Source: Vermamoeba vermiformis (Eukaryota). Taken from it: a stretch of 64,000 nt of DNA. Below are positions 6,974-64,000 of this stretch, one piece after another. The position numbers were made by a program, and so were the translations under genes. The stretch covers positions 248,001 through 312,000 of the forward strand of contig JBEWZL010000056.1 in NCBI GenBank assembly GCA_045837725.1, written 5' to 3'. Position 1 is the first letter of the stretch, and each line of letters starts with the position of its first letter. The notes below the pieces were generated by a model, which was given only the letters and a program-made list of their open reading frames with translations, did no database searches and was not told the DNA's origin.

Positions 6974-8696
6974 TTAAGGCAAGGTCAGATGAGCCGTGCC
7001 ACCAATGACATCGATGTAATTGTACGCAGGTGATTGATAGTAATCGCCAAACTCGTTGGGAATGTTGCCGTGCACAATGCCCTTCGCAGTGACGCTGACC
7101 AACTGACCCGTGCAGGCACCAGCACACGTGACTTGGAAGGTCGTGGAGTACGGTGTGTTGGTTGGGAATGAGCTGACGTACACTGACTGCGACGAACCCG
7201 AGGCCATTTGAAGCGGGAAAGTGTCTGACACGTGTCAAGTTAGTTGCGTGTCGTGCTCAATCAGGGCCAATCATACCGTAGTCGTAGCTGTCCGTGTCAA
7301 ACTGAAGTTCAATGAGGGCGTTGCTCGCTTGATAAGCACTGCAGTCGAATGAAATCAAGCACGGATAAGTCGCCACAACACTGATTTGAACTGTCGTGTT
7401 CGAAGCAGTCTGCGACACCTGTCAAAAGTGTTAACTTGCGCAACATGAGTGCAATTTACATATAACGACTCACAATATTTGCTTTCGCGTTGACTTGCCA
7501 AGGATAAATTGCAACACCTGCCAAATACAACTTTAGAACTAATACGGCCATAAACACGTAAAAAACTTTTGTACGGAGTTGTCCGTCAAAAAAACTAAAG
7601 AAAGCGCAATCCAAAAATACGATTCAATGCGTTAAGTAATGCATACCGAAATAGGGGTTGGGACGAGGACTATCATTCTCGCGGTACTTCCACGTGTTCA
7701 AGAAATCTGCCTCGCTGAAGGTGTAATATCTCGGCGTGCCATCTCTGTCAGAATCATGAGTTAACAGCTGAAATTAGTTGTATGTGATAGTAAGTCCCGT
7801 GCCTGTCCCAAGGATCATTTGCCGTGATTGTTCCTGCTGCATCATCGTAGCCCACAACGACGCGGAAATGACTGTGAAAAAATGAATCAATTCATCGGCT
7901 TCAAATCTTTCTTTTGCAACAGAAGATTCGTATACTAATCTAATAGATACGTATACTTGCAGTGCACTTACCCGTCATGTGTACCGTTCACTGCAAAGTC
8001 GACTAACACCATCACGGGGATATCTTGTGCGATCAGATCCTGCTTCAAGCGTCAATACGAATCATGATGAACTCTGCTTCAGTCTTATATTACCCACCTT
8101 GAGTTCGCTAAGCCAGTTATAATTATCTTTCCAAAATGCGGCCAGTCCGAGTGGCTGATTTGGATAACCATTTTGCAGCTGCAAGTCGGTCAGATCCCGC
8201 AATCATATGTCAAAAAGTTGTCACGTAAACAATGGTACCATCATGATTGTAAATATTGCAATTATTAATATGCCGCAGTCAATTCAACCAATGGAATGAT
8301 AGATCATGTTTGTCAAGCATACCTTGAAATCAGGATATAATCGACCCATGGACGAACTTAATGCTGAAAAATGAGCGCCCCTAATTATTTCAAGTGATAA
8401 GGTACCTATCATAATCAATTTTGTTAGCGGGCTATAGCGGATTCAACGCCAAATATTAGAATTTATTTTTTAATTATCTTACCCTCGTGCGTAGTTGAGC
8501 GCATAACATCCATTATAGAAAATTGATTGACCTGCACGCCGTAATAATCTAAAATCATTTGAAGTGAGGCATCACCACATCCAAAGTTTGTTTCTTGTCG
8601 GTGATACGGCACATCAATTCGATGCGATTGAGGACGCGCAAACACATTAACATATAATATGCTATATAGAGATAATACTATTATAAAGGACCTCAT
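6974..8696 (-). CDS. Secreted peptidase C39-like (papain-fold) protein with beta-rich C-terminal domain
   Basis: Signal peptide; DVPYHRQETNFGCGDASLQMILDYYG (Gln/Cys), HFRVVVGYDD (His) and NDPW (Asp) in successive exons. Confidence 0.85.
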
Positions 8697-8805
8697 TTGT
8701 GGTGATAATTGAGGGTCGAACCGTTAAAAAAATAATCGGATCAGCGTTGAAATTTACTTCCATTTCGTAATAATAATACGTGCTTTATTCGTTTGGTGTG
8801 CCAAA

Positions 8806-9334
8806 TTAGCAATTGACCGTAGGAATAATGTTCTTAACACAAGGACAGCCTAGCAAACGAAATATGAGATTTTTTTTGAAGGGGATGTGGTAGTTGGTAC
8901 TTACAAGATTGCCACATAGTACTGCCATAAGCTTCAAAACATTTTTGGCATGACGCAACATTAGTGCCACAAACTACAAATATAAATTAGAAAATTATTC
9001 GCGACTTTCAGTACAAAAATTATTCTACAATACTATGACCTTGAAAAATAGAGACCGATGGTATATTAAATAATATGCGTATCATAGATAGCCTTACCAG
9101 GAACGCAGGCTCCAAGAGCCATTCCACACTTAATTTGAGCATCCATGTTGCACGTGAGCTCGGGTGGTTTTTGGCTTACTTCTCTAGTCTTACGCTTAGA
9201 GCCATTTTCACCACGCTTTTTGCCTGGTTATGCGTTAATCCAAGAAGATCTCGCAGGAGAGTCGGATTACCTTCAACGAGGCAAGCAGAAGCCAGAATAA
9301 GGCCCAAAAAGATTACGACAAACCACTTGTTCAT
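8806..9334 (-). CDS. Secreted 100-aa prepro-peptide with a 10-Cys C-terminal domain; 4 exons
   Basis: Exons 9334-9271, 9223-9098, 8973-8905, 8849-8806 with GT-AG introns in consistent phase: signal peptide, basic spacer, then CNMDAQIKCGMALGACVPVCGTNVASCQKCFEAYGSTMWQSCCPCVKNIIPTVNC*. Confidence 0.8.
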
Positions 9335-9616
9335 GGTGCTATTCATAGAGTAATTTGAAGCTTTACTCCAAAAAAAATTGGAATGTTGTTCAGTGAACCA
9401 ACTCCGCAAGACCACATCTAGTTATCTCGCGGGCATCTGAAAGGGAAAATCATGTCGGGATAACACTAAGGGGTTTATATTACAAATATTACATGAGGAG
9501 GTTCTGTACAAGGTTGAGACCATTCGCATCCTAAAGGCGCTGCATCTTAAACAAAGCCGTCGGAAGATCTCCAGCAAAATTGAGGGTTTTTTGTCGCGAT
9601 ATATCAGCTTCAAGTA

Positions 9617-19050: not shown

Positions 19051-19119
19051 CTTGTCAGTTAAAATAAAATTGAACAGTTTTGTTCAGCATTTGGAAAAAG
19101 AGACACCACGGCGACCCAA

Positions 19120-43953: not shown

Positions 43954-44181
43954 TCGACACTGTGACTGGAGCCATGGCTGTCAGTGCTGGAACTGACTGT
44001 AATAAATTTTGTAACTAACTCACCCCTCATCTGCGTGTTTAATATGAATACAGTGGTACAATAGGCCTCTCATATTTAGCGGAGTTAAATAATAATTTAT
44101 ATAAAACTAATTACAGTGCGAACACTCTTGAACGCGCCATGAGTACAACAAATAAGTACAATGTTCATAATAAGAGTGGTC

Positions 44182-47487: not shown

Positions 47488-48418
47488 TCACTCGTCCATT
47501 TTGAACACTTCATCTTCTATAATTAACAGCGTTGTTAGTACGTGCGAGAGCAGGATCCGGAACAATTTAACAGTGCGAACAACAGCAATGCAAGTGGTAT
47601 CGAATACTTACCGCCAATCTTGTTGTTTTCTTCGTCCTCTTCGGAGCTATCGGCCTATTATTGTGATTGTTAGCATCGAAAGCGATAAAAAATCTGGTGT
47701 CGAAATTGAAGCTGAAATTTAACAAAATGGTTCGATAGCCCGTATTTAAGTTGCGTAGTAGTCTCGTACCTCGTCCTCCTCAGGGATAGGTCGGCTACCA
47801 TCATCCTTGCCAGTCACGCCAGGGATAAATGGCAGATGCACTGGAGGAGTTTTGCTGAGCGGTGATTGTCTCAAGAACAACAATTGATTTCTCTCGTACA
47901 TAATCTTAGTACCTAATCGACAATGAACGTTAGCGACTAATCATATTATGATTTAATAAATTCGTGGATGTTTTCCGCCGATGTGAAGACCAACCGTATT
48001 ATGTTTGAGGCAAATTAGAATTTAGTAGTGCCATTATATTTGCACAATTATATTATAGCTTTTGAGGGTGTGTATTGAATTTGTAATGAAATCGCAATAT
48101 TGTTAAAAATTAAAATATTAAATAACATTTTAGGCCTCTTTGATTTAATATTGATTGGCACTTATTAATACATAACTATTTAATATTGAAATATTTTCCT
48201 TGAATTTCAATAATTAAGCTGAGGTTTATCTTCGGCAGTATTAAATCTGATCGTGCTGAAATTAATTTTAAATTACCTCCGGGGGTAGTGGCATACATAG
48301 TACCACCAGGAGTTTGAGAAATATCTCTGGGGTTGGGCGACCAGCCGTCTGCACGACTAGGGATGCTGATGGCAGAGGTGTAAGAGCCGGGCTTTGAATT
48401 CAGCTTTGAAGTTGACAT
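47488..48418 (-). CDS. EIF4EBP: eIF4E-binding protein (4E-BP)
   Basis: [24 protein letters not shown] (YxxxxL-phi), [14 protein letters not shown]-terminal TOS motif FKMDE*. Confidence 0.93.
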
Positions 48419-48874
48419 TGGGTACTGTCTAGACTAGAAATATATTTACAAGTCTTTTTGAAACGAAAGGGCACAACTAGTAATAGTGTCTGGGTGAGTT
48501 CTGTGCTCTTGCAAGCCTTGATCGCTCAACAATAAAACAAGTCCATTAACGAACAAACCGACGCCGCACTCATGAACTGAACTCCGGCATACTATGGAGG
48601 AGTTGATTAGTGGCTTAATTACGCTATGCTTGCTAACACGAGGACGCTGGTAAGATCCGATCGGATGTCTTTGGATCGTCTTCCACAAGCTATTTTTGTT
48701 CGCTTGGGTTATGTATTCCTACTAGCACAATATGCTTCTAGACTACGGTCTCGAGGCGTTGCATGACGGTTAGTTTCACTACCGACCAAGAGTATCTTCC
48801 AACCCACGCCACAACAACGAGTCTTTCGCACTTATAGATAGCAATTTACTTGAATACTAATTATAACACATAAC

Positions 48875-50459
48875 TTATTTAGACTTGTACTCCTTGTTGA
48901 ATTCACGGCCGATCAACATACGACGGATCTCGCTCGTACCAGCACCAATTTCGTAGAGCTTAGCATCGCGGAGAATACGACCAGTGGGGTACTCGTTGAT
49001 GTAGCCATTGCCGCCGAGACATTGAATGGCGTCGAGAGCAACACGTGTGGCCTTCTCAGCGCAATAGAGAATGACACCAGCGCAGTCCTTGCGACTCACA
49101 TTGCCCGCGTCACATTCAGCAGCGACTGAGTACAAATAGGCACGGCACGCGCGCATCGTGGTGTACATGTCAGCGATCTTGCCTTGCAGCAATTGGAACT
49201 CACCGATGGGCTGACCGAACTGCTCACGTGTGTGGACATAAGGCAACACCACGTCCATGGCAGACTGTGCACGTGAGTGAGCAACACGAGGTGTAGTTAA
49301 CGAGAGTAGGACACACGTACCTGCATCAGACCAACGGGACCAGCAGCGAGCACGAGTCGTTCCAAGTCCAAGCCACTCATCAAGACATAGACACCCTTGT
49401 TGAGACCACCGAGAATGTTCTCTTCGGGCACTTCACAGTCCTCAAACACGAGTTCGCAAGTGTTAGAGCCGCGCATGCCGAGCTTGTCGAGCTTTTGAGC
49501 GGTCTTGAAGCCCTTCATGCCCTTCTCAATCAAGAAGGCAGTGATGCCGTGAGGGCCCTTGTTCAGCTCAGTCTTGGCGTAGACCACCAACACATTGGCG
49601 TCGGGACCGTTAGTGATCCACATCTTGTTGCCGTTGAGCACGTATTTGTTGCCTGTGCAGTGCGTTAGCTTCACGTGTCATCAGAGTTCAGCACCAGATA
49701 TGCATCAACGCACCCTTCTTGTCAGCACGCAGCTTCATGGACACGACGTCACTGCCGCTGCCAGGCTCGCTCATGGCCAAAGCACCAATGTACTCGCCTG
49801 AGATCAGCTTGGGCAAGTACTTCTGTTTCTGTTCTTCGTTGCCATTGCGCACGATTTGATTGACGCAGAGATTGGAGTGCGCGCCATAAGAGAGTGCAAT
49901 GCTGCCACTCGCGCGACTCAACTCCTCGACGATGATGCAGTGATCAGTGTACGACAGACCCAAGCCTCCGTACTTCTCTGCGCTGCGTTAGTGTCGTGGA
50001 GATGATAAATGTGTCTGATAGTACCTGGTGCAGTGACGCCTAAGAAGCCCATCTCACCCATCTTGGGCCACAGCTCGTTGGGAAACTGATTGTCACGATC
50101 CACTTGCGCGGCACGAGGAGCAACGTGCTCTTGTGCCCACTTGTAGACTGTCTCGCGCAACTGAGCATGATATTAACGCCCAATACTAGTGTATTATATT
50201 GAATGCTATTGCGTACCTCTTTGCGCTCAGGTGTCTCCACGTAATTGCGCTTCTGTTGCTTGGCGAAGATCGAGCCTGTCAGAGTCTGATAAAAAATTAT
50301 TAAATATCAATACTTGATAATACTATTAACCTTTTGATGGTCAATGCCCACAACTGCGAATCGCAGTGGGGTGAGGTATTGCGACTAAGGAATTTTCAAT
50401 ATTATTTTAATCAATTAATCAACGTATCGTAGCATAAAAATGTGTATTACTGATGTCAT
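48875..50459 (-). CDS. IVD: Isovaleryl-CoA dehydrogenase
   Basis: [56 protein letters not shown]. Confidence 0.95.
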
Positions 50460-50714
50460 TATTACCGCTGTATTTTATTAATTAGCCGCGTATTCGTAAT
50501 GGGATCTATTTTAATTGCATCAAGAGTCGCGAGCTGAAAGCTGTCAACTAACACTTACTGTGGCTGATTTCTTCGAAAATACTGCACGATGAGTTGTGGC
50601 AGCTCTTTGGAATAAACGAGGAAGCATCTTGTGTGGATCTGACTTTGGCGTAAATGAAAAATAATCTTTCCTTGGCTTTAGCTATTTTAATAGGCAACAT
50701 TTCAAGTCACAACA

Positions 50715-52498
50715 ATGAGTGTTATATTGGAGACATCATTGGGTGACATTACCATTGACCTATTTGTCAAAGAGTGTCCTAATACATGCAAGAACTTCCT
50801 CAAGCTGTGCAAGATCAAGTACTACAATAATTGTCTGTTCCACAACATTCAAAAGGACTATATTGTGCAAACTGGTGACCCCACCGGCACTGGCAAAGGA
50901 GGAGAGTCAATTTATGGGTAAGTTTTCTGATCTGTCAGTAATGATATTATTATGTTGAAAAAACACTTCGTATTGATGCTAAGATGCATTATGTGATCTT
51001 ATATGCCGTTGAAAAATATTTGGAGAATTTTTAGAATTATTTTTTAATTGTAACTTTTTCTCTGACTAATCACGCACTTTCATATTTAGAATACTCTACG
51101 GCGAGCAAGCAAATTTCTTTGCCGATGAAATTAAACCTAGTTTGCGTCACAAGAAGCCTGGCACAGTCGCAATGGCGAATCCAGGACCGAACTTGAACGC
51201 TTCACAATTCTATATAACAGTTGGAGAAAATATGACCTCTCTTGATGATCAACACACTGTATTTGGCATTGTAGCTGAAGGACTCGAAACAGTTATGAAA
51301 ATCAACGACGCATTCACGGATCAAGAGGGCAGACCCTTGCAAGTGATTAGGTACGCATCGATCGTTATGTAATGCCTCGTTAGTACGCTACTAACAATAG
51401 CAATATAATAGAATCCGTCATACTCTTATTCTCGATGACCCGTTCCCAGATCCGTCAGGTCTCAGCGTGCCTTCACGCTCTCCCTCACCCAAGCCTGAAA
51501 AACACATGTTAGCAGAGGACTTTGACATCAAAGACATTCCACAGGACGAAGAGACACTCGCGAAGATGAAAGAAGAACTCGCTGCTAAAGAAGCACGTGC
51601 TCGTGAGGAAATTCTCGCGGTGGTAAGTACCTCAATCCGTCTGTTGCAACAGCGCTATTTGATAACACGGCACTGTTAGGTCGATGACTTGCCCGATGCG
51701 GATGTTAAGCCACCCGACAATGTGTTGTTCGTGTGCAAATTGAACCCAGTCACGACCTCGGAAGATCTAGAGATCATTTTCTCGCGGTTTGGCAACATTA
51801 TTAGGTATTCAATAAGCAATCACTTGCCATGACTACTCGAGTATTAACCCATCCATTGTCGTGTAGCTGTGAAGTCATTCGCGATTGGAAGACCAAAGAG
51901 AGCTTGCAATACGCCTTCATTGAATTCGAGACCGCTGCAATGTGCGAAGAAGCGTACTTCAAAATGAACGACGTGCTCGTCGATGACCGCCGTATTCACG
52001 TCGACTTCTCACAATCAGTCGCCAAGGAGAAATTCAAAGCGGCTGGAGGCTGGAAAGGCTATTTTTGTAAGTACATTTTGCACCAATTACGCAGTAAAAT
52101 CTCGCGCTAATGTCTTTGCAGCACAGAAAGCAGCTGAAATGTCGGGCAGAGGAGGACCCAAATATGAGAGTAAAAACCGCGGTAATAATAGCAAGTATGA
52201 CATGTTGTTTGATGACGATGAGGATCGAGGACGCAGCAAAAGAAAAAGAGATGACGATTCGGACTCGGGATCTGATCGTAAGCGACACAAACGGGATGAC
52301 AAGCGCAGAGACAAAAGACGAAGCAGATCACGCAGCAGAGAGAGAAGACGAAGCAGATCTCCGCAAAGAGATAAGCGAAGAAGTCGCTCGCGTAGCCGAG
52401 ACCAAAAGAGAAACAGAGATCGGGACAGACGAAGTCGATCCAGATCCCCTCGGAATCGACGAAGCAGATCGCGAAGCAGAGACAGAAAGCGTAGGTGA
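50715..52498 (+). CDS. PPIL4: Cyclophilin-RRM-RS protein PPIL4/CYP59/Rct1
   Basis: [30 protein letters not shown] ([34 protein letters not shown]), RS tail. Confidence 0.95.
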
Positions 52499-52864
52499 GC
52501 TCGCTATGAATCGCGATATTAAAGACATAATTTTATTTAATTAGTTACGCGCAATTATTATGTTCTCGGTAGTCCTTTGTGTTTCAGTAATTTTAGCTTC
52601 TGTGGGAAATAGAATCCTAGCTTGCAACAATCCCTGAAATTAAGACAAATTTTCTCTAACTCACCCGCGCAAATCTAGCAATGACCATAAAAGTCGCGCT
52701 GTTTCAGCATCTAACAGAAATTTCACGTAATGATGCCAGAAAACCGACTCTAATAGCGATGCGTAATGAAAGGTCTCAATTATAAAAAGCTATTTTCTTG
52801 ATCTTATTCATTCAATTAAAATCATCTTAAACACGACACAACACTTCAACAAAGTAACAACGAA

Positions 52865-53486
52865 ATGACGCATTGGTGGCCGATCCGACTCACTATCATC
52901 ATCATCTGCGGCTCTGTAATTGCCTTTGGTGCTACTAATCTTATTAACGGTGCTATCCTCTTGTCTGAATGTCTTCTTACTGGCGGTTCTAGTTGCGGTG
53001 GCAAGTCCCAATCTGACGCTGTTGTCACCTACGGCTTGAATATCGCTCAAGGTGCTTTCCAATTGCTTGTGCCTATCCTCGCTCTATTTGGTACTGCTAG
53101 GTAAGCTTCTCTCTCACTTATTCTACCTTTAGTTCAGTTACTGAATGGTTTTTGTTTTCAGATCTCAATCTTTCTTCCACGTTAAGAGACGCGACTACGT
53201 TATCATGGTCATCTTCATGGTTCTCTACTCTTTACAACTCGCTTTCACCATTGCTTCGCTCGTTACTGCTGTTATTACCTTTGCTAACACTGTCGCCAAT
53301 GCTTCTAACCCAGACGAAGTTATTTCCGACGTTTTGGACTTCATTTGGTTCGCTATCTCCACTGCTTTGAACTTGATTCTTTGGATCTTCGGTCTCATGT
53401 GGACCATTCACCTCCGCCGTACCTTGCACGCTCCTTCCACTGCTGCTCACAAGGGAACCTACAAGCACAACGCTCAATCTGCTTAA
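52865..53486 (+). CDS. Small four-TM membrane protein, unknown function; 2 exons
   Basis: Hydrophobic helices in both exons, intron 53101-53161 (gtaagc..ttcag), strongly biased codon usage. Confidence 0.7.
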
Positions 53487-53562
53487 GCTAAATTATTTAT
53501 GTAAATAGGAACGAATAAAATTTATTTAGAACAAGCTAAGTTTATTCACAGAGCGAATAAAA

Positions 53563-53609
53563 TTTGCCCGCCTTTTTTTGGTCAAACTTTTTCAAACTAC
53601 TAGCCGTTA
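53563..53609 (+). promoter_or_regulatory. Putative cell-cycle promoter module of CDC20 (E2F-like, CHR-like, MSA/Myb)
   Basis: TTTGCCCGCC 53563-53572, TTCAAA 53591-53596, TAGCCGTTA (=TAACGGCTA) 53601-53609. Confidence 0.45.
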
Positions 53610-53681
53610 CAAACAAACACTTGCCAAAAAACGTCCATTGTTTACTTCCATCAAACAACAACACAACGCAGCTGATCCAAA

Positions 53682-55317
53682 ATGTTAGACAGCTATTCCC
53701 AGATCTCAACACCATTCAAGTCCTCGGTTAAGAAATCGGTAAGTTATACTAACAGATCTGAATTTTCCAGACCTGCTCCCCACACACCGTACAAAACTCC
53801 TTCAAAGACTCGCTATGGTGATAGATTTATCCCACAACGCAAGTAAGAATCCTTAAATTCGTATTCTAAATAAATTAAATATTGACGTTCAATTCGAAGC
53901 TCGACCGACCTCGAACTCGGCCACTTCAGTTTAATTCATGATAAAGCATTGACCTCCAAAGCAATGCTCGACACTAGTCCCTCCAAAGAGCAATACAAGT
54001 CTACCATTGCAGACTCGTTGTTCGACTCGAATCCACACAGCAAAATTCTTTCTTTCCAGAACAAAACCAAGAATCTCAGCACATCCTCTGACGATTACGA
54101 GAACAAGCGCAAGCTATTGTATGCGCAAAACAAGTTTGTCAACAACACTCAAAAGCCCTCGCGTGTCATTCCCAACGCACCAGAGAAGATCTTGGACGCA
54201 CCCGCGATTATGGACGACTATTATCTCAACTTGCTTGATTGGAGCTCTTCAAATATGCTCGCTGTTGCTTTGAAGCAGTCGGTGTATTTGTGGAATGCCA
54301 GTGATCAATCTATTGTCGAGGCGAGTATTAAAACCATTTTTTCCACGATTTATCTAACCTAGCATTGCAGTTGGTCACCCTTCAAGAGGAAGATAACTAC
54401 GTCAGTTCATTGTCATGGTCTCAAGACGGCACACTGTTGGCTGTTGGCACAAACTACAACGACGTTCAGATCTGGGACGTTGAGCGCAGCAAACAATTGC
54501 GTCGCATGCGCGGTCACACAGCTCGTGTCGGTGTCTTGGCTTGGAATCAACACTTGGTCAGCTCTGGCAGTCGCGACAGCAGCATTTTCAATCACGACGT
54601 CCGCGTGGCTCAACACCACATCTCGAGCTATCAACGACATACCCAAGAAGTCTGCGGTCTCAAGTGGTCGCACGATGGCACTCAATTGGCCTCTGGTGGT
54701 AATGACAACCTCGTCAATGTGTGGGACATGCACAGCACCGAGCCTGTCTACACGATGAACCATCACCTCGCCGCTGTCAAAGCTATCAGCTGGTGCCCGT
54801 GGCAAAAGAACTTGTTGGCTACTGGAGGTGGCACTGCCGATCGCACCATTCGATTCTGGAACACGTCCACTGGTGCTTGCTTGAACGCTATTGACACTCG
54901 CTCTCAAGTGTGTCAGCTGTTGTGGTCGAAAAACCATCGCGAATTGGTCTCATCGCACGGGTATTCACAGAACCAATTGATCATTTGGAAGTACCCTCAA
55001 ATGCACAAGGTCGCTGAACTGACTGGTCACCAGTCGAGGTAAGTGACGCACGTTTATTGCCGTGCCTTCGATGTACTAATGACTGTTGCAGAGTACTCCA
55101 TATGACCATGAGTCCCGATGGCAACACTGTTGTTTCTGCCGCTGCTGATGAGACTCTTCGCTTCTGGAACATCTTCGAGAACGAGTCGTAAGTAAAGCAT
55201 TGCTAGATATCATCTCGGTACTAACTCCCTACCAGGCCTGTGGCACAGAGTCCTAAGAAGGTCATTCCTGTTCGCAAGAACGCTCCTCTCAGCCTCAGCA
55301 GCATCAAGATCCGTTAA
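53682..55317 (+). CDS. CDC20: APC/C activator CDC20/Fizzy
   Basis: C-box [30 protein letters not shown]40 repeats, C-terminal IR tail. Confidence 0.95.
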
Positions 55318-55720
55318 GGCTGGGGACGGATCTGTGTTGTTGTTGATGAGCACTTGGTGCAGCAATGTGTACGCGTAGCTAGGTGCTTTTGAGCGCCCAT
55401 TGACGTAGCTGTAGTGTGGGAGCTGGTTTGGCACTTGCAAGACTGTCGGTAATTTTACAGCTGATGCAATTTCGTTTTGATGCTTCGAAATTGAAGACGA
55501 GTTTCAGGCTCGTCGTTAAACTAACCAATTTAGGTACTGGCGATTATTAAGTTAGTTGCTAACCCAATTGGTGTTTCTTAACACCTTTCTTGCAAAGAAA
55601 TTTACATAAAGAATTCTCGGCCCGAAATTTTTACCCGCTCGGGAACCCGCAATTTTAACGTAACGGTTCAGTTATTGCTGCTAATTATTATTTGAACGCA
55701 CCTTGTATAGACTACGAGCA

Positions 55721-57473
55721 ATGTCTTGGTTCTCTTCAAGCAGCAAAAAGAAAAAGGAACAGGAATTGCTCGAGATCAACCGATCTCACGAATCCCAAGC
55801 TCTGGCACTTGGCATTGCTCCATCCACGACACCAAAGACCACTACATCGTCGTCAAGTGCACAAGCAATTGATCAATTAAAAAAGAAATACGATCAAAAG
55901 ATAAATCAGCTGGTTGCGTCGTTAGAAGCCAAAGCAGAGGATTGCATTCAACTTCAAGATGAGCTCAAGGCGTTGGAAAAAGCTCAAAAGGTTATGAAAA
56001 GTGAAAATGAACAACTGAAAAATGAAATAGAGAAACTTAAAAAAGACGTGCAAAACTCGAATAAGGTAGGTTATTGCGATTTTATTATTTGAAATGTAAA
56101 TTTATGTTTTTACGGCACTAATTAATTGGTCTTGCTAATGAAATATTATAATAATTAAACAGTTATTTAATACAGCAGGTTAATTTCGTAAATTAAAATT
56201 GCATCTCGCAACGGTTATTTTTTATTCTGCTTGTCAATTTAATAAACGAATTACAAGCACCAATATTTATTAAATTAATTAAATTAGACAAAACAATCAA
56301 ATGAAGAGATTATCGAAGAGTTGCAGCGAAGGATCATCACGCTCAGTTCCTCGCTGGAAGAAATGGCGATGGAAAATCTCGAACTCGACAACAAACTGCG
56401 CGAGGCCACGGGCAAACCATCGACCAATTTGGGTGCCAAAGCTCCTGTAAGTAACTTGTCAGCTGTAGACACGAGTCAAACAGATCACATTGCTAAATCT
56501 CTGTGATTTAGCCCTCGCCGCTGTCCCTGTCAAGAAGTATTGGCGATGAAAAGCGCTTGGAGGCATTGCAGTACGTAGCACAACACAATATGGGAAGTGT
56601 GGCTAATAATATCTTGTAGGAATCAAATCAAATCGCTCGAAGCAGAACTTCAAAGCAAGAAGCAGCGCATCGAGATACTAGAGTCAGAATTAATTAAAGA
56701 GGTGCAAGAGAATGTAGCACTGAATGAGTCGTGCGATAAATACGAGGACAAGATCCGCGAAGTGGAGAAGAAGATGAAGGACAATTTGAACAAAGAGGCC
56801 TCGCGCCGTCGTGAAGCTGAGTACTCTGTGACACGCCTGAAGGTAATTGATCAATACTCACGCTATAACTACGAGTTTCAATGGATTAACACCCGTACAG
56901 AAAAAAGTACAAGAGTTGCAGTTCTTGCTGGAGGAAAAAGATGACGACTATTTGAGCAGTGATAGTGACAGCGACAGTGACAGCGAAGATAAAAAGAAAA
57001 AGAAGAAGAATGAACCAAAGAACGACAAATCTAGCAATACGAACGAGCCCGAGAAGAAAGCAGAGAAAGCTGAAGCAGCGAAGGAAGAGCCAAAGAAAGA
57101 AGATAAAAAGGACGATAACAAGAACAAAGAGGATAAGAACAGCAAAGACGATAAGAGCGCGGTGAAAAAGGATGACAAAAAAGACGACCACAAGAGCGCA
57201 AGCAACACTAAAGAGGACAAGAGCTCGACGAAGAAAGATGACAAGAGCTCAAATGGCACGAAGAGGGATGATAAAAAAGACAAGAGCAACAGTCCCCAGG
57301 AAACTAAAAAAGATGACAAGACCAAGAAGGACGACAAAAAGGACACCAAACCGGACTCTAAGAAATCAGATCCAGTTGCGACACCGGACAAAAAGACACT
57401 CGCCCCCGTTCAAAATCCCCCCACACCTTCACCACCCAAGCGCGGTGGCTTCCAACTGATCAAGATGAGTTGA
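55721..57473 (+). CDS. Hypothetical coiled-coil protein with Lys/Asp-rich low-complexity tail
   Basis: Multi-exon coiled coils followed by KKDDK-type repeats. Confidence 0.7.
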
Positions 57474-57711
57474 TGCACCGAGCTCATCCCAGACTTGTAA
57501 ATAGCAAGGTCCATTGTTTATCATGTACAGTACAACGCGACAATAAATTTTGTTTAATTGACCGTCAGTGTTATCGTTAACATACATTTATTTACAGCGT
57601 GCCGCTCACTGCACAGCTCGTGGCACTGATGCTGCACTAGCATTGTGACACTCGACTCGCGTGTTGGCGCAAAATTGAAATATACAGGTATAAATATAAT
57701 GCGCGAGATAT

Positions 57712-58782
57712 TTAGCTGTAGAATATCTCGTTGTAGAACTGGTCCATGCGCTGCAGTTCCAGTTTGTGCTGGCACGAGTCAGTGGTGTGCGTGCAGAAAC
57801 CATTCATAGTGCCCGGTTGGTTGAGGTTGTTTTGCGTGTTGTACATGAATTTAGAGGCCTCGCGTTGCAAGCCGACGGCATTGAGCATGTCAATCATCTC
57901 CACCAACACCTCCAAGTCTCGGCTCGGCATGGTGCGAGTCATCTTGCGGATGCGCTCGGTCTTCTCTTCCAAGGACATCGACGAGTAGGTCTGAAGAGTG
58001 CGGCTGATCAATGAATCGAAGTCCTTCTCTTCTGCGTTGTCCAACTTGCGTCGCTTGACATCAGGGATGCCCATCTCTTCCAACAGCGCGGACATCTCGG
58101 CATTGGGATCGGGCACCTGACCTGAAGCAATTGACTTGAGCAGTTGAGTTTGTTCAGCTTGGCGCAACTCGATGGCCTCCAATTTCTCCATCAAGAAGGC
58201 CTCGTTGTAAGTGCGCTTGCGAGGAGTGGGAGATGATTCGCGCGGCACGTACTCGCTGCTGCCGGGTGAGCCAGGCTCTTCATTCGACACTTGCTCGGTC
58301 TTAATGGCAGGGGTCTTTTTGCGGTGCTTGAGTGGCTTAGAGATGACTTTGATGGGTCCGGACAGCAGTTGCAATTGAGGGAACTGCAGATTTAAGGGAT
58401 CCCAAACGTGAATTTTGAGTCTGAAGAAGTTGTCTTCGTGGTGACTCGAGAGCACCTTGATTTTGACGTCGAAACTGATCTGGTCGCCGGTGTCGTTGAC
58501 CACGGGCTTGTAATCCACGGGCTTCACCTTGACGAAGCTAACTTCCTTCTCGTCGACGACGTCGTATATTAATTTAATATCGAAGGCTAAATGGTTGAAG
58601 TTGGAGACCTTGGCGTTGCGCAATCCGATCAGCAGTTGGAAGGGTGAGTTCTTGACCACAACGTGCACGATCTGAGTTTGGCCGTTCTTGGTCACCTTCT
58701 CTTCAGTCAGGGCGGTTTGCTTGATTAAATCCAACTGCGGTGCTCCGCTTCGCATTTGATTCAGAAAGATTGTGTTTTCCAT
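57712..58782 (-). CDS. CudA-family transcription factor (amoebozoan); intronless
   Basis: VHVVVKNSPF, KIKVLSSHHEDNFFRLKI, SGPIKVISKP resemble my recollection of the CudA DNA-binding core; basic NLS-like tracts. Confidence 0.7.
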   Translation of the reverse strand: MENTIFLNQMRSGAPQLDLIKQTALTEEKVTKNGQTQIVHVVVKNSPFQLLIGLRNAKVSNFNHLAFDIKLIYDVVDEKEVSFVKVKPVDYKPVVNDTGDQISFDVKIKVLSSHHEDNFFRLKIHVWDPLNLQFPQLQLLSGPIKVISKPLKHRKKTPAIKTEQVSNEEPGSPGSSEYVPRESSPTPRKRTYNEAFLMEKLEAIELRQAEQTQLLKSIASGQVPDPNAEMSALLEEMGIPDVKRRKLDNAEEKDFDSLISRTLQTYSSMSLEEKTERIRKMTRTMPSRDLEVLVEMIDMLNAVGLQREASKFMYNTQNNLNQPGTMNGFCTHTTDSCQHKLELQRMDQFYNEIFYS

Positions 58783-59395
58783 GGCTTGATGAAGGGCTAC
58801 TTGCTAGATCTGCGTGGGGTAAATTGAAAAAATGTCCTGATGTGTTGTTGCCTCATTACAGTGCTAATTAAAAAAACCCAGAATCGCACGCGCACTTCTT
58901 TCTCTTTTTCCAAGTTGGAAAAGTTGATGGAAGGTTCTATGGAAAAATCGTATGTGATTGGTCAGAAGGCACATGGGCCAATCATCGAAGGAATTTCAGC
59001 CAATAGAATCGCTAGCAAAGGTATATTTTGGAGTGCCCGGTACCGCCGATAGGTAAGCCTTGGTGTCCCAACCGAAAGATAATACCCTTTGCTCGATGAG
59101 CAGTAAGATCTGATTGCTTATTTGTTCCTTTTGAACCGGGCACTCTTCAGCAAGCCTTAAGTACATCCTTTGTTCTTGTTCTTTGATAATTTTTTTCCGT
59201 AGCTTCGAGAACCAAGGATCCTTCCATCGATATGTGATTTGTGCTATTTTTATACGAACGAGCTTTTCTTGTCTTGCTACGACCGCTCTAGTAAATTTGT
59301 ATTGGTGAGGGCCACACTATCTGATATGAAAGTCTATGATACAATTTATAGCTTGGCCTCCAGTCAGTTAGCCAGGATCCGATCTTACTTCAGGA

Positions 59396-60303
59396 CTATT
59401 GATTGTTACGCTTCCATTTGGTCGGGAAGTTCTTGCGTTGTCTCTGTCGCTCTTTCTCGCGCTCTTCTGCTGCACGTTGCTCGTCTAATCGCTGCTGTTC
59501 ACGCGTGTCCGCGGCGAACTGTGTGCGCTGCTCTTCTAAGTACTCGTCCCATCCGTCGTTTAGGCGCGTGTATCTAGCGTACAAGTTAGTACTATACCAC
59601 ATAGAAAACCGTATAATTACTTGTTGGAACGGCACTTGAGTGCAATGACAAATCCAACAACGATTAGCGCGATGATTATCAGCACTACGAGGAACTGCGT
59701 TAGATCATTGTACTTAAGGCAAGACATGACCTAGTCTTACCTCCTACTGCGCATATAATAAGCAGCATTTCAAAGGCATTGACTACAAGCAGTCAGTAAG
59801 GTTAATGTCAACAACAAAAGCGTACCAGAGCACGTCTTCCAGTAGTAGTTGCTCGATGTCAAAGTGTAGTTGGCATATTCAGAGTCATTGCCTCGAGGGC
59901 CGAATATAGTACCCAATATGCAGCGCGTCTCATTGACGAGTGTTTCGCGAACGAGCGTCGGATCTGACTCTTCAATAGAGGTGCGAAGCCATATGCAATT
60001 CAAGTGCGTAGAACAGTCACCACACGTTTTTTCGGAAGTACAATCTAATGACAAGAATTAATTAGGCTTATTGTAGGTTTCAAAAATGATTTTGATCTCG
60101 GAATAGATTGGGGCATACAATCAGCCGAAATTCACAGGTTTGTAAAAACAGGTATAAAATAAACGTAATTTTTGGTGGCCATATTTCAAGGTGATTTCAC
60201 TCTATTAATATATGGCGCTTCATTAATTACCTTGAGCGCAATAGATGCCCAATTGCGTAAGAGCTATCAATATAAAGACTTGTGTTCGCCTGCTCAAAAG
60301 CAT
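59396..60303 (-). CDS. PTTG1IP-like PSI-domain single-pass membrane protein
   Basis: Signal peptide, DCTSEKTCGDCSTHLNCIW..C..YYWKTC, TM segment, charged cytosolic tail. Confidence 0.7.
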
Positions 60304-60406
60304 TGAAAAATTAGTTGCTTATTCCGACTTGATTCATACACTTTCTGTGTGATTAGTTGAATGAGGTTTCGTTTGATTTTTCTGCTGTTAAATTGACACG
60401 CCAGCC

Positions 60407-61112
60407 ATGAGTCAACAGAACATCGAATTCGAGTTTGCATTCAACGGCAAGAAGCATAATTTAACTGTTTCGAACAATGTTTCGGTAAAAGGTCAGATCT
60501 ACCCCTTATCGAACGGTATTAATTTTTGATCTTAGATCTCAAAGATAGAATAATCGGAATGCTAGGCACTCCTCTAGAAAATATGAAGATATTGGGATTG
60601 AGGAAAGGAAGCGTTCCTGATGACAGCGTGAGTTGAAATTTAAATATTGATAAGAATTAAAATAAATAATTAATTAATGATCGCAGGAAATTCTCTCATC
60701 GCTGAAATTAGCCAAAAAAGCAAAGATTATAGTACTCGGATACGAACCGAAGGTAACAAATACCATTGCAGATCCAGCGTTGTACTGAAGACCAAAGCAG
60801 GATGCAGTCAAGCCCTCCAGCCCCGCACCAGCCCCTGAGAACAAGACGCTGAATGAATTCACGCAGATTGAGAATGACATTGCTGGCGTGGAACAGTTCA
60901 TTGAAAGTTTTATTCACGAACACGGTCCTCGCGCCCTCGACAAGACGCAGAACTTTGAGCTGAAGAAGCGCGAAGAGTTGTTGACGCAGCGACTGATCAA
61001 ACTCGACGGCCTCGCGGTCAATGACGACACGCGACCGAAGCGCAAGGCCCTGGTAGAGCACATTCTGAGGGTCGCGGACAAATTGGAGGCGATGAAGATG
61101 TCAAACAGTTGA
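60407..61112 (+). CDS. Ubiquitin-like plus BAG domain co-chaperone (BAG1-like)
   Basis: Ubl exons (FAFNGKKHNLTV..DLKDRI..MKILG); BAG helix EELLTQRLIKLDG..RKALVEHI. Confidence 0.85.
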
Positions 61113-61115
61113 CTC

Positions 61116-61564
61116 TGACACGTGTCACATTCAACACCACTTGTACAGCGCAGTAAATGACACTTTTGACAGCTACCACTCGTCAGTCACCGCGGCGAGG
61201 CCGTCATCCGCTGCAAACACTAATTCTCCGCCGTCCTGCTCTTGACACGTGTCATCTGCTGGCTCGTCGTCGATAAAGTCGTCCCATTCTGATTTCTTTT
61301 TTTGGTTCGTGGTGCTCGGAGTGACAGCAGGGCTCGTGACACTTGACACGGACTGGGGTGCAGTGTTTGACACGTGTCTAACAGTGGCTGTCACACTCGT
61401 GTTCTGCGCTCTGTTCGCTGTCACGGCACGTATCTTGTCAATCACGTGCTGTTGTGTCTGTGCCGTCTCATCAGTGACACGTGTCAAAGTGGGTGTTGGA
61501 CTGGGTGTTGATCGTGCGAGGTGCGCAGTTGAAATCAGACGCGGACTCTCATTTGACACGTGTC
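61116..61564. repeat. Cluster of dispersed palindrome (T)GACACGTGTC(A)
   Basis: Copies at 61116, 61243, 61369, 61475, 61555; further copies at 7226, 36308, 41652, 63297. Confidence 0.85.
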
Positions 61565-62180
61565 GCGCTGTGTTCTCGTGACGCGCGTACTTCGGCGCTG
61601 ATTCGTAGCTGTCACGTGACTCACTCGCTGTCCACTTGCGTTTGACACCTGTCACTGCGGTGTTTCGTTTGGGCTGAGCACTCCACTTGTTAGCACTCTG
61701 CGCCGTGTTATTTCCTGATTTGGAAGGTCTTTTGTACTCGGGCAGTGCTGTCAACAGCTCCGTGCCAGCCTCAGTTTGACGCGTGTCATTGCTTGAAGTG
61801 TCATTGTCCTGGTTACATCAGCATACATGTCTATATAACGCAGCCTATATGACTAGCCGTACCTCTTCCAAGAACTGCGCCCATTCATTGGTCTGGTCGC
61901 GCGGAGTGTTGTTATTAGACCCCTCGCTTTCAGTCCGCAACACGCGCTCCTCAACATGTTTCAGCGTGTTCGTCGCTGCTTCTTCTTCAATTTCACCGCG
62001 CTTCATGTTGTATTCTTGGACGATAGGACGGATGTCTGCAGCTTTGAACGACCGCGCGTAGATCTTGCGTACACTTTGCTTGGAGCCACACATCTTGCAC
62101 ACAAAATCATTTGTTTTGCGCAGCTGTTGTGCTTGAAAGGATTGGCACGAGTAGCAGCGCACTACGATGTGTTCGGGCAT
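61173..62180 (-). CDS. MRNIP: MRN-complex interacting protein (C5orf45/UPF0544)
   Basis: VVRCYSCQSFQAQQ..FVCKMCGSKQSVRKIY..AADIRPIVQEYN; EWAQFL and SEWDDF motifs. Confidence 0.88.
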
Positions 62181-62562
62181 CTGAAATTAGCGGAAATTAA
62201 TAATGCACAATCTTATAAACCAAAGATATACAGAATTGCACTATTGAATATAGAACTGCGTGAATTAATTATATAAATTGTGTCTGGTAAATTTTCAATG
62301 TTGGATCTACCTTTAATTTAATTAAACTTCGTGGTGTGGCAAGTCAAACAGAGGATTGCAAACTCAATCGAGCAGTGGTGCGGAGTTGTGAGAACCAATC
62401 AGAGCAAATCAAATTCAATAGGCACAAATCTCTTGTCTGTGCTTGTCACCGCAATCATAAATCAAAACTGCGAGGCATTCACACAATTGATAATCATTGA
62501 GTTGATTGGCTGCACCTCATGATCTCATTTTGAACCTTGTACTCTAGCAGAGCCTACAGAGC

Positions 62563-64000
62563 ATGGCCATCACACTTTACATGCCATTAGAGTTTGGTAA
62601 GCGGAACTTTGTGGGCAAATTGAATTATTCGATTAATTCAATTTAATTTTGATACTCAATTAATACTGGCCATTTATTATTTAAAATGATACGTGCTTTA
62701 TTAACATCAACATAATAATAATATTCAGCAGTCATTTAAAACATGTCGGACCCCTTTTATGCGCGAAGTGATCCGCTATGCATGTCTCTCGAGCAATCGC
62801 TGCACGAGAATAGAGACCTTGCCGCTAAACTACTCGAAGACGTGGCTAAGACTGAAGAGCTCTTAATATCATTGCACAAACAACTCAAGAAAGCTAAAGA
62901 ATTCACATCTGCACTCGATCATCAACTCCTCTCTCGCCGCGCAGAGTTGAAGTAAGCTACTACAACTATATGTACTATTACTAACGCCGTGGTTCTAGCG
63001 CGCACTACAAACAGCTCGCTGAGCAGTACGGCGTGCCACTCGAACAGCTGTCCGTGATCACGCTGCTCTCAGACGAGCTCTATTTGGCTATATTTACCTA
63101 CTTTGACTACGTCACGCTCACTGAAATTTCAACGGTAAGTGGCACGTGCTCGCAAATAGACTGCTGATTATGACACGTTTGACAGGTGAGCAAGAAGTGG
63201 CTCACTCTCACGCGGGACAATTCGCTCTGGCTGGCACTGTTCATCAAGTACGCACTGTGCTATAAATAGACCTCTTTTCACTGAAATCACGTGACTGACA
63301 CGTGTCCGCAGAGCCAAAGACAAGTACGTGCCCGAGAGTGTGCGCGAACAAGACCGCAAACGACGCGCGGCACAAGAAGAGCGCCAGAAGAGTTTGACGG
63401 CGCTGAGTGGACTGCACAAACACAAGCGTCGCCTGACTGCTGACAAGCGCGGCACGGAGCTCAGACCTCGCCTGCCCTGTTACTACGCGCACTGGTACCA
63501 CTACTTTGCTGATCGCATGCGCGTGCACAGTTGGGTCTGGCCCGAGACTGCAGCACCGCGCAGCAGACGCGAGGCAGTGGGATTTGGTGCGCCGGAGCCT
63601 GGCTGGGCCCTGGCACTCGAGGACTGCGCGCTGAGTCAACTGCGTCACGGCCGCGTGGAGCTGTTTGACAAGCTGACGGTGGTGCTGGCGGATGTGCAGC
63701 ACGATCTCAACAAGAACTGTAAGTAGTCACGTGATCGCGTGCGAGGGCAGAACTAACGGACCAATCAGCGAACATCTTGACCACTGACGGACTCAACTGC
63801 GACCAGCACGAGCAGTGGGCGGACAGTCTCAGTCTCAAGGCACAGACCAAGACGCCATTCGACGCTGCACTCTTGTGCGAGCGCGCAGTGGACAAGTACT
63901 TGACAGCTGTCAAACAGTTCGAGGACAAATATCTCGCGTCAGTTGACAGCGCACTCGAGGACACTGCGCGTGACAGTCCTGTGCGGCTGTTGACCTCCAA
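62563..64000 (+). CDS. F-box protein, runs off the window (partial)
   Basis: LLSDELYLAIFTYFDYVTLTEIST|VSKKWLTLTRDNSLW F-box after a coiled coil; further exons to 64000. Confidence 0.78.

Follow-up and report, generated by a model that had tools for sequence, protein, structure and literature searches.

The closest described parallels to the palindrome analysed here are a prokaryotic repeat, the sites of eukaryotic transcription factors and, for its intronic copies, the spliceosomal branch site. Palindromic TALE-homeodomain sites include MEIS-type sites alongside that of TGIF1, the usual variants of the E-box have CASSTG centres, and the branch site has the consensus yUnAy, as in the UACUAAC type. 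Cyanobacterial HIP1 (GCGATCGC) is 15- to 300-fold over-represented and tied to orphan methyltransferases (PMC5861425, PMC4390886); this prokaryotic 8-mer can exceed one motif per gene, and two such methyltransferases are described (PMC5861425, PMC4390886, PMC13756078). In the TGIF1 crystal structure, ATTGACAGCTGTCAAT carries one homeodomain on each of its two opposite faces, with contacts to the central G and C (PMC6158717), and HY5 binds the G-box TGACACGTGGCA (PMC4415419).

Over-representation and geometry of the palindrome

The perfect 12-mer TGACACGTGTCA occurs six times in the 64-kb window (the whole stretch of DNA analysed here), at 7226, 36308, 41652, 61116, 61243 and 61475. Its 10-mer core GACACGTGTC is found nine times, at these six sites and at 61369, 61555 and 63297. 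The initial annotation had placed every copy correctly, including the 14-mer TTGACACGTGTCAA at 41651 and the near-copies at 26788 and 26813. None of 100 dinucleotide shuffles of the window contained the 12-mer, and the core averaged 0.06 copies per shuffle with a maximum of one. An order-3 Markov model predicts 0.014 copies of the 12-mer and 0.11 of the 10-mer, while the order-5 expectations (0.21 and 1.1) are inflated by the motif's own hexamers. Among all 10-mers and 12-mers of the window, the palindrome is the most over-represented. Allowing up to two mismatches to the 12-mer gives 30 matches, whereas 100 shuffles averaged 3.49 and never exceeded 10. The four cores outside the 61-62 kb cluster compare with about 0.11 expected (Poisson ~5e-6). 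The shuffle and Markov counts thus confirm a real iterated palindrome around a CACGTG core, as had been proposed, and lower-order composition, named at that time as a possible explanation, does not account for it under either the dinucleotide or the order-3 model.

The core is built of two inverted TGACA half-sites separated by exactly 2 bp. A half-site spacing scan of the window found TGACA-N2-TGTCA 9 times versus 0.23 expected, while the other spacings from 0 to 10, in inverted and everted arrangements, gave 0-1 occurrences each versus 0.1-0.3 expected, with none enriched. The centres of the nine cores consist of G and C only (CG in six, GG, CC and GC in one each), and the anatomy of the motif is that of a CASSTG E-box with TGA/TCA flanks. 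CACGTG is found in 52 contexts in the window, nine of which are GACACGTGTC, with the runner-up context occurring twice. Copies with non-core flanks are also enriched (43 versus ~15 expected) and may be ordinary E-boxes. Half-sites reach 16 in one 500-bp bin versus a mean of 1.9 per bin.

The motif resembles HIP1 in being a short perfect palindrome that greatly exceeds background, present in coding sequence whatever the frame, lineage-conserved and of a function which in HIP1 has long been unclear. Unlike HIP1, it is a 12-mer of a eukaryotic host, has 0.14 cores per kb in the 64-kb window, is patchy and is intron-biased. With the TALE-homeodomain palindrome TGACAGCTGTCA of TGIF1 it shares the inverted TGACA half-sites, the 2-bp spacer and the T/A flanks; ATTGACAGCTGTCAAT and the 14-mer differ only at the centre (GC versus CG), and the window copy at 63901 is exactly TGACAGCTGTCA. 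However, the centre is CG in six of the nine copies and GC in just one, and the copies lie in gene bodies, not promoters. The CACGTG or ACGT core is also that of the E-box, G-box and ACGT elements of bHLH and bZIP factors, and the HY5 G-box equals the one-mismatch copy at 24313. Those elements belong to promoters of plants, animals and fungi, whereas our motif has no promoter copies, keeps strict flanks and is imposed on coding sequence.

Distribution of the copies along the window

Outside the MRNIP gene, the following copies and variants were located:

7226-7237: perfect 12-mer in predicted minus-strand intron 7225-7276, stopping 1 nt short of the 3' splice site (intron end ...ctaacTTGACACGTGTCAG)
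7413-7424: near-copy CGACACCTGTCA (2 mismatches), at or straddling the predicted 3' splice site of the next minus-strand intron
24313-24324: one-mismatch copy TGACACGTGGCA within the plus-strand F-box/LRR ORF 23798-24520
26786-26822: near-copies GAACACGTGTCA and AAGCACGTGTCA beside CCTAATTAGG, in a minus-strand intron (assigned by eye) of a MORN-repeat gene
36308-36319: perfect 12-mer in predicted plus-strand intron 36294-36347 (54 nt), with an overlapping near-copy at 36315
40050-40061: family variant TGACAGGTGTCA, read TPV in a Pro/Val/Thr-rich coding stretch of minus-strand ORF 39769-40275
41651-41664: perfect 14-mer TTGACACGTGTCAA, read L-T-R-V-K in minus-strand ORF 41386-42123 (weak, sub-threshold Snf7 match)
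61116-61127: perfect 12-mer starting 3 nt past the stop of the plus-strand BAG-domain gene, in the 60-bp convergent BAG/MRNIP gap
63171-63182: near-copy TGACACGTTTGA (2 mismatches) at the 3' end of predicted plus-strand intron 63135-63185
63296-63307: core copy TGACACGTGTCC in predicted plus-strand intron 63248-63311; 4 nt separate it from the 3' splice site, and it overlaps a CTGAC branch-like site
63901-63912: variant TGACAGCTGTCA (L-T-A-V-K by manual reading) within the plus-strand gene of 62.7-64 kb; its sequence is that of the canonical TGIF1 palindrome

Three of the nine cores are located in predicted short introns, five in coding exons, where all three frames are used, and one in the 60-bp gap between convergent stop codons; the earlier description of copies mainly in mid or 3' gene regions is therefore only partly right. 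All copies lie in transcribed DNA. None of the nine cores was found in AT-rich intergenic or promoter DNA, the place to expect ordinary transcription-factor sites; this absence is not significant at these numbers. The spread is patchy: seven copies are packed within 0.7 kb at the MRNIP 3' end, from the BAG/MRNIP gap onward, and no copy with two or fewer mismatches lies in 8-24 kb or 42-56 kb. Groups of copies extend from one gene into another and across strands, here from BAG over MRNIP into the following gene.

Intronic copies and recurrence in environmental eukaryotes

Seventy-five high-confidence introns were inferred, constituting 6.4% of the window; the filter required a branch-like word. 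Three of the nine cores fall in these introns (binomial P ~0.016), and nine introns contain a copy at three or fewer mismatches. TGACAC is the top hexamer of the last 28 nt of introns (n=8), and 17 of the 75 predicted branch sites are of the yTGAC type. Most branch A residues stand 9-14 nt upstream of the intron end, in agreement with the terminus ...TGACACGTGTCAG. Imperfect intronic copies are strand-asymmetric, with nine sense TGACAC versus two GTGTCA in the 75 introns, although this asymmetry is partly built in by the branch-like word required by the filter. As a pure double-stranded DNA dimer site does not predict such asymmetry, an RNA or branch-site component is indicated.

The same motif is present in introns and in a conserved enzyme exon of two environmental eukaryote contigs. 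The first (L007) has seven cores in 3 kb across two genes, five of them intronic, and manual reading places a copy or near-copy in about nine of its 11 introns, in the stretch from branch site to 3' splice site. The second (L001) has three copies in a single 311-nt intron. Two exonic copies of L007 align to Arabidopsis ACX4 without an indel (LTRVI versus VSRVM, YDTCL versus YDMCH), so the motif is not an insertion there.

The introns of these contigs, the enrichment of cores in the window's introns and the confinement of every copy to transcribed DNA speak for a pre-mRNA element, in which yUGACAC would be an extended branch site, the whole word would aid 3' splice-site definition or splicing regulation, and self-complementary copies might pair with each other. 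The intronic left half does resemble a spliceosomal branch site in its yTGAC sequence, a typical spacing to the 3' splice site and a sense-strand bias. However, branch sites are non-palindromic and absent from exons, and the majority of introns here rely on CTAAC, CTAAT or TTAAC and lack the motif. Since 66 of the 75 introns lack it, it is no general splice signal. A branch site could do without the right half, and nothing in RNA calls for perfect two-fold symmetry; five of the nine cores are in coding exons and kept in orthologues, and copy groups cross genes and strands, in L007 as well as here. The RNA fold of the MRNIP 3' region was no better than shuffles (z = -1.54, equalled by 2 of 20), and no Rfam match was found in the window. 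We regard an RNA-level function as rather unlikely.

Recurrence in related environmental eukaryotes would also fit a HIP1-like molecular drive, i.e., biased repair, gene conversion or methylation-linked conversion of near-matches throughout the genome with no site-by-site function. Cyanobacterial HIP1 offers a precedent of over-representation combined with orphan methyltransferases, and a perfect palindrome with a central ACGT/CACGTG resembles a possible methyltransferase-type site. Coding copies stand in all three frames and were made by substitutions, not insertions, and the excess declines with Hamming distance (6, 7 and 17 matches at 0, 1 and 2 mismatches versus ~3.5 expected overall). Locally, however, the distribution is not of the HIP1-like kind suggested by the initial annotation but patchy, with two empty stretches, and the small share of motif-bearing introns also disagrees with a genome-wide drive. 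CpG is not depleted (3231 observed versus ~2990 expected from base composition), hence there is no sign of heavy 5mC. In the literature searched, the term "highly iterated palindrome" refers to cyanobacteria in all 17 papers using it, with no eukaryotic precedent. Such a drive appears improbable to us.

Imposition of the motif on the MRNIP coding sequence

The densest group of copies belongs to MRNIP:

61176-61808, minus strand: last coding exon, with four cores and two variants
61243-61254: perfect 12-mer, minus-strand reading D-T-C-Q
61368-61379: one-mismatch copy, coding strand AGACACGTGTCA, read R-H-V-S; the perfect form would create an in-frame TGA stop
61475-61486: perfect 12-mer, read T-R-V-T, with R or P in orthologues (CG or CC centre)
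61554-61565: one-mismatch copy, coding strand CGACACGTGTCA, read R-H-V-S, stop codon avoided
61643-61654: variant TGACACCTGTCA, read V-T-G-V-K, with T-G-V-K invariant in 5/5 orthologues
61777-61788: variant TGACGCGTGTCA, read D-T-R-Q
61809-62180, minus strand: intron 61809-61862 and first coding exon 61863-62180, free of motif copies

Twenty-three TGACA/TGTCA half-sites lie within 61050-61850. Translation confirms the three frames reported before (DTCQ, TRVT, RHVS). The two TGA-frame copies have the codons CGA/AGA-CAC-GTG-TCA, with CGA or AGA in place of TGA. Synonymous recoding of the exon with the window's codon usage gave a mean of 0.16 cores, and 0 of 20,000 recodings reached the observed four; codon-choice probabilities of the exon copies are 0.004-0.025 per site. 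The view that protein selection is not the explanation is upheld, and codon usage likewise fails. In addition, TTG-ACA-SST-GTC-AAA is shared by unrelated proteins, being read LTRVK, LTAVK (by manual reading) or VTGVK.

One could still attribute the motif to composition, codon usage or a recurring peptide, as V-T dipeptides are abundant in the MRNIP tail, RHVSN occurs there twice, and the TPV repeats at 39.8-40.1 kb yield CC-centred variants. Some GG/CC-centred variants do lie in this TPV-rich coding repeat, and the variant at 40050 could be explained by the protein-level repeat instead. For the core set, however, this extremely improbable account is refuted: the dinucleotide, order-3 and codon-aware nulls fall short 25-fold or more, a protein-level account is inapplicable to the intronic and intergenic copies, and one word serves three reading frames.

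In five MRNIP orthologues (67-97% identity) the motif-encoded peptides are kept, with 16 of 20 motif-encoded residues invariant versus 76 of 139 other aligned residues (manual count), a conservation that does not separate DNA-level from protein-level selection. At the sole variable central codon, R alternates with P (CGT to CCT), which keeps it within the G/C-centre family. In the closest strain, P0161 (97% identity), P stands in place of the window's R, so the perfect form can be dispensed with.

Relics of mobile elements (MITE ends, joined terminal inverted repeats, excision footprints or introner remnants) would be compatible with the presence of copies in introns and with the preservation of frame by a 12-bp insertion. 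Membership in a longer transposon or MITE family, which the initial annotation had considered, is largely refuted: the only feature common to the flanks of 13 copies is a 5' T, with no target-site duplication or longer repeat, and motif-bearing introns are otherwise unrelated. TRF found no tandem repeat. The L007 exonic copies show no indel relative to ACX4, and no presence/absence of four residues was seen at motif copies among the MRNIP orthologues. We consider a mobile origin highly improbable.

A possible site for a dimeric DNA-binding protein

We tentatively favour the reading of TGACACGTGTCA as a selected binding site for a symmetric (homodimeric) DNA-binding protein, to which the "chromatin-protein site" put forward in the initial annotation comes close. 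In favour of this reading are the excess, the fixed half-site geometry with its G/C centres, the codon-level imposition without insertion, the peptides kept in orthologues, the homotypic clustering here and in L001 and L007, and the structural precedent of TGIF1; the strand asymmetry in introns and the P of strain P0161 count against it. The motif would be the lineage's own cis-element, read as double-stranded DNA by a symmetric sequence-specific protein, and selection would retain its copies within transcribed DNA, preferentially in short introns. There, the left half may double as a branch-site-like yTGAC, with the copy often abutting the 3' splice site. In the absence of an intron, the motif would enter coding sequence via codon choice and tolerated substitutions, and in the frame creating a TGA stop the outermost base alone would be sacrificed. 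We speculate that such binding may serve transcription control from within genes, act where 3' ends converge as a roadblock or boundary, or mark some other chromosomal landmark.

Abundance and symmetry of the palindrome

The palindrome is a real and statistically overwhelming feature of the window, notable for its unusual dual coding and for its association with introns. The perfect 12-mer TGACACGTGTCA occurs six times in the 64-kb window (7226, 36308, 41652, 61116, 61243 and 61475) and its 10-mer core GACACGTGTC nine times, the additional sites being 61369, 61555 and 63297. All positions listed for the two words in the initial annotation were borne out by the window scan. None of 100 dinucleotide-preserving shuffles contained any copy of the 12-mer, and the shuffle mean for the 10-mer was 0.06; an order-3 Markov model gives expectations of 0.014 and 0.11, respectively. 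Across the composition-aware backgrounds, six 12-mers stand against 0.006-0.014 expected and nine 10-mers against 0.06-0.11 (64-kb window only). Lower-order composition, named by the initial annotation as a possible source of the copies, falls far short of these counts. The palindrome is the top over-represented word among both the 10-mers and the 12-mers of the window, and with up to two mismatches allowed 30 copies are found (shuffle mean 3.5, maximum 10).

The structure of the word is equally constrained. TGACA-N2-TGTCA was observed nine times against 0.23 expected in the 64-kb window, while all other half-site spacings from 0 to 10, in inverted and everted arrangements, are at background. 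The central two bases of these nine copies are G or C only (CG six times; GG, CC and GC once each). Of the 52 CACGTG hexamers, nine are flanked by GA/TC, and every other context is seen at most twice. The CACGTG/ACGT core is present in 9/9 10-mer copies, and the variants carry CASSTG. Given the fixed spacing, the G/C centre and the dominant GA/TC flanks, the word has strict two-fold symmetry and admits two readings, a pair of TGACA half-sites or a CASSTG E-box with flanks.

Several other words were recorded. Beyond the nine cores, the window has 43 CACGTG hexamers with other flanks, including TCACGTGA-type sites (e.g., 61610), against about 15 expected for all CACGTG; these may represent a separate, ordinary E-box. 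In 14 other long ORFs CACGTG occurs 11 times, compared to a codon-aware expectation of 3.9. The palindromic 10-mers TGTTGCAACA (25500, 39503 and 51642) and CAAGTACTTG (41467, 46103 and 63893) are present three times each. Repeated TPV units in a Pro/Val/Thr-rich coding stretch (39800-40130, minus strand; a gene without a Pfam match) yield several TGACAGGTG words.

No description of the motif as a genomic repeat was found in the literature under the 12-mer, the 10-mer, the 9-mers or ACACGTGT combined with "intron". Matches to the motif words came from primers, Widom-601 constructs and plant G-box/ABRE work.

Copies in the MRNIP coding exon

Five of the nine cores in the 64 kb lie within 61116-61564, at the end of MRNIP, a minus-strand gene convergent with a plus-strand BAG-domain gene. 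The four cores outside the 61-62 kb group still exceed the expected number of about 0.11 (Poisson P ~5e-6, our own arithmetic).

Copies of the palindrome in and next to the last coding exon of MRNIP
61176-61817, minus strand: ORF of 214 codons with six copies
61777, MRNIP ORF: DTRQ, one mismatch
61643, MRNIP ORF: VTGVK, GG/CC centre
61554, MRNIP ORF: RHVS, one mismatch
61475, MRNIP ORF: TRVT, perfect
61368, MRNIP ORF: RHVS, one mismatch
61243, MRNIP ORF: DTCQ, perfect
61116: core starting 3 nt past the BAG stop, within the 60-bp gap before the convergent MRNIP stop

The gene model is backed by a full-length orthologue of 324 residues which joins the zinc-finger exon to the motif-bearing exon and matches Pfam MRNIP (9e-24). 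Start-to-start spacings from 61116 through the MRNIP copies are 127, 125, 107, 79, 89 and 134 bp. The interval 61050-61850 contains 23 TGACA/TGTCA pentamers, and one 500-bp bin has 16 of them against a window mean of 1.9. The two MRNIP copies placed in the frame that would give TGA begin with CGA and AGA instead, which is the closest possible match avoiding a stop codon. The 12-base palindrome is demonstrably superimposed on coding DNA in each of the three frames, yielding only at the stop-creating base.

For a codon-aware null, the MRNIP exon was recoded 20,000 times with the codon usage of the window itself. Recoded exons had 0.16 cores on average, compared to four observed, and none of the 20,000 synonymous recodings reached four; the codon sets used at the MRNIP copies have a joint probability of 0.004-0.025 per site. 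Protein sequence was accordingly rejected as the source of the motif, in agreement with the initial annotation, which had argued from the use of all three frames (DTCQ, TRVT and RHVS) that protein selection does not explain the copies. We regard an artefact of composition or peptide sequence as essentially excluded.

The peptides encoded by the motif are retained in five orthologues of the MRNIP tail (67-97% identity): TGVK, the first RHVSN, HVSN of the second one and TCQ are each present in 5/5. By our count over these orthologues, 16 of 20 motif-encoded residues are invariant, and so are 76 among the other 139 aligned residues. The difference suggests retention at the DNA level but does not settle it, because selection on the protein could give the same result. 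The central residue of TRVT is variable: two orthologues have R, and three, the 97% strain among them, have P. R versus P would correspond to CGT versus CCT, the same G/C-centre variation as among the window copies.

Introns and gene positions of the copies

The window is eukaryotic DNA; its G+C content is 43%, and most introns are about 40-75 nt long. Its genes include zf-UBP/RING, CLU, F-box/LRR, MORN, NBR1-like, CDC20, BAG, MRNIP and acyl-CoA dehydrogenase; one more ORF has a weak, sub-threshold Snf7 match. Introns were assigned from sequence by rules (GT start, branch-like word, YAG end and an open frame across the junction), and 75 high-confidence ones were kept, covering 4,079 nt or 6.4% of the window. 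RNA-seq depth over 60.7-63.3 kb in the runs with the same species label is about 1-5, too sparse and diverged to confirm introns. Three of the nine cores fall in inferred introns, five in exons and one (61116) between the convergent stops.

Introns with a core, inferred by the rules
7225-7276, minus strand: intron ending in TTGACACGTGTCAG
36294-36347, plus strand: intron
63248-63311, plus strand: intron ending in CTGACACGTGTCCGCAG

No core (0/9) is located in intergenic upstream DNA; the 560-bp divergent promoter at 62181-62743, for instance, lacks the word.

At up to three mismatches, 9/75 introns have a copy, compared to 1.1 in shuffled introns and 2.7 in random window segments. TGACAC is the commonest hexamer in the final 28 nt of introns, and 17/75 inferred branch sites are of the yTGAC type. 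Within introns TGACAC in the sense orientation outnumbers GTGTCA 9 to 2, an asymmetry partly built in, since the intron filter required a branch-like word. An RNA-level or splicing element would account for both the intron bias and the overlap with branch sites. It leaves unexplained the two-fold symmetry and the conserved exonic copies, and 66/75 introns have no motif. A branch-site or 3' splice-site signal would be expected in the majority of introns, on the sense strand and at a set distance from the 3' splice site. The 3' RNA of MRNIP shows no excess structure (folding z = -1.54), and Rfam gives no match in the window. On balance, we consider such an element unlikely.

A second palindrome, CCTAATTAGG, is found three times in the window (5886, 26773 and 35310) against 0.026 expected, each time in an intron or at its 3' end. 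The copy at 5886 reads CCTAATTAG up to the junction, followed by G, and 5 nt separate the one at 26773 from a near-copy of the main palindrome.

The palindrome in environmental contigs and relatives

Metagenome contigs were scanned for two cores 95-125 bp apart, giving at least 116 loci. No blastn similarity to the window was found among the loci listed. Two environmental eukaryote contigs from one metagenome, L001 and L007, are intron-bearing and were the sole informative ones among the loci inspected; the 26 others inspected were satellites or repeat families, bacterial-looking GC-rich DNA or other pairs. The same pair pattern has only two matches in the viral collection, and no MRNIP orthologue was found in viral contigs.

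L001 has three copies inside a single 311-nt GT..AG gap, the removal of which restores an open frame. L007 has seven cores in 3 kb, each with flanks of its own. Four of them are in introns recognised by the same rules, and a fifth is intronic by manual reading.

Introns of L007 with a core
257-302, minus strand: intron ending in ATGACACGTGTCAG
653-712, minus strand: intron
1893-1944, minus strand: intron
2104-2156, minus strand: intron

Two more copies of CCTAATTAGG were noticed by eye in L007, at about 1010 and 2946.

The remaining two cores of L007 are in a conserved acyl-CoA oxidase/dehydrogenase exon. In its alignment with the Arabidopsis acyl-CoA oxidase ACX4 (E = 9e-33), LTRVI is opposite VSRVM and YDTCL opposite YDMCH. 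There is no indel in this alignment; the exonic copies arose through base substitutions, some of them altering amino acids, rather than through insertion. As these contigs show, the palindrome is also found in uncultured relatives.

The acyl-CoA dehydrogenase gene of the window (48.9-50 kb) was considered as an orthologue of the L007 gene and proved to be only a paralogue, so it offers no orthologous DNA comparison. Reads of an aquifer metagenome run pile up at 48670-50003 to a summed depth of 139-213, and joints and loose ends are numerous there. Since this stretch encodes the conserved acyl-CoA dehydrogenase (minus strand), the pile-up is probably due to homologues from other organisms.

These data also bear on the origin of the copies. 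The flanks of 13 copies have nothing in common beyond a frequent 5' T, repeat finding around the copies yields only the 14-20-nt motif itself, and Tandem Repeats Finder reports no rows. On these grounds a MITE was rejected as the source, as were a longer dispersed repeat and a decayed tandem array. A tandem or coding repeat is likewise at odds with the uneven spacings and the three reading frames, and transposon or MITE ends and footprints with the lack of indels versus ACX4 or among the MRNIP orthologues. Membership of a longer transposon or MITE family, raised by the initial annotation, is ruled out by the same unrelated flanks and missing indels; relics of mobile elements have, in our estimate, next to no probability.

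Substitution origin and indifference to frame are both accounted for by a drive like that of HIP1, the highly iterated palindrome of cyanobacteria. The window motif resembles HIP1-type palindromes in being perfect and many-fold above composition-aware background (in the 64 kb covered), and in occupying coding DNA whatever the frame. Further marks of HIP1-type words are a genome-wide abundance near one copy per gene and cognate DNA methyltransferases acting on the core; the window offers nine cores in 64 kb. The patchy distribution of the copies fits such a drive poorly, and we find it a doubtful explanation. In the literature searched, all 17 papers with the term "highly iterated palindrome" deal with cyanobacteria. 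The initial annotation had proposed a genome-wide HIP1-like word around an E-box core, due to biased repair or methylation or serving a chromatin protein. This proposal is partly supported: the palindrome excess, the coding presence in three frames and the failure of the codon-aware null hold, and the genome-wide extent and the repair or methylation origin are its conjectural parts.

For the CDC20 of the window, no homologue exceeds 68% identity, and the best named ones come from dictyostelids and assorted protists. The NBR1-like protein has environmental relatives at 99, 87, 86, 83, 81, 80 and 78% identity, then none above 48%. RNA-seq runs with the species label of the source (X21 and X23; 44001-64000) map mostly at 90-95% identity (16,615 of 21,966 reads in X21), which suggests that clearly separate lineages go under this label. 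Many RNA reads from the highly expressed NBR1-like gene have "opposite strands" joints (45859-45945 and 46868-46908), and about half have a 6-nt insertion variant behind 45960. Both may be due to differences between strains or to artefacts of the libraries.

A putative dimeric DNA-binding protein

We tentatively favour the palindrome being a selected site of a putative dimeric DNA-binding protein, while rating the chance of this at somewhat under a half. Perfect two-fold symmetry is the mark of a symmetric protein dimer on double-stranded DNA. The fixed half-site spacing, the G/C-tolerant centre and the homotypic grouping are what such a dimer would leave, as would groups crossing gene and strand boundaries.

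One model is provided by TALE homeodomains, whose palindrome shares with the window motif the inverted TGACA half-sites and the fixed 2-bp spacer. According to PMC6158717, ATTGACAGCTGTCAAT is contacted on opposite faces by two TGIF1 homeodomains. This site differs from the window 14-mer at 41651 only in the central GC versus CG, and the window copy at 63901 matches it exactly. The centre in the solved TGIF1 complex is GC (TGACAG half-site), whereas the TGACASSTGTCA family has GC in 1/9 and CG in 6/9. The CACGTG (CANNTG) or ACGT core of bHLH E-boxes and bZIP G-boxes is found in all nine cores, and the HY5 G-box given in PMC4415419 is identical to the window copy at 24313. A CACGTG-binding bHLH or an ACGT-binding bZIP would be an equally good candidate. 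Sites of these factors are expected in promoters or enhancers, unlike the cores of the window. The lack of promoter copies counts against a dimer site in general, as does the polymorphism of one perfect copy in a close strain. The intronic copies, by their sense-strand bias and their position at branch sites, suggest an RNA component, which also speaks against it.

Significance

The usual view is that short regulatory words stay out of coding sequence or persist there by accident. Here, a palindrome is favoured in tiny introns beside splice signals and is also written into coding DNA. Less probably than a dimer site, a lineage-wide 12-bp palindrome could be a eukaryotic counterpart of bacterial signature words (HIP1, uptake sequences, Chi), i.e., a drive or a landmark and not a gene-specific element. 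As such, it may be kept throughout gene bodies, overriding synonymous and some non-synonymous codon choices. It may be maintained by sequence-biased repair or a methylation drive; alternatively, its groups may mark replication origins, may act as cohesin or boundary sites where gene ends converge, or may serve as a self-mark.

If a dimeric protein binds the palindrome, the compact protist genome would offer a clean natural setting in which to study dual-use ("duon") coding sequence and gene-internal regulation. Should the palindrome instead be generated by a drive or be a chromosomal landmark, it would be, as far as our literature search shows, the first HIP1-like word in a eukaryote. Either way, the palindrome is a simple, testable handle.
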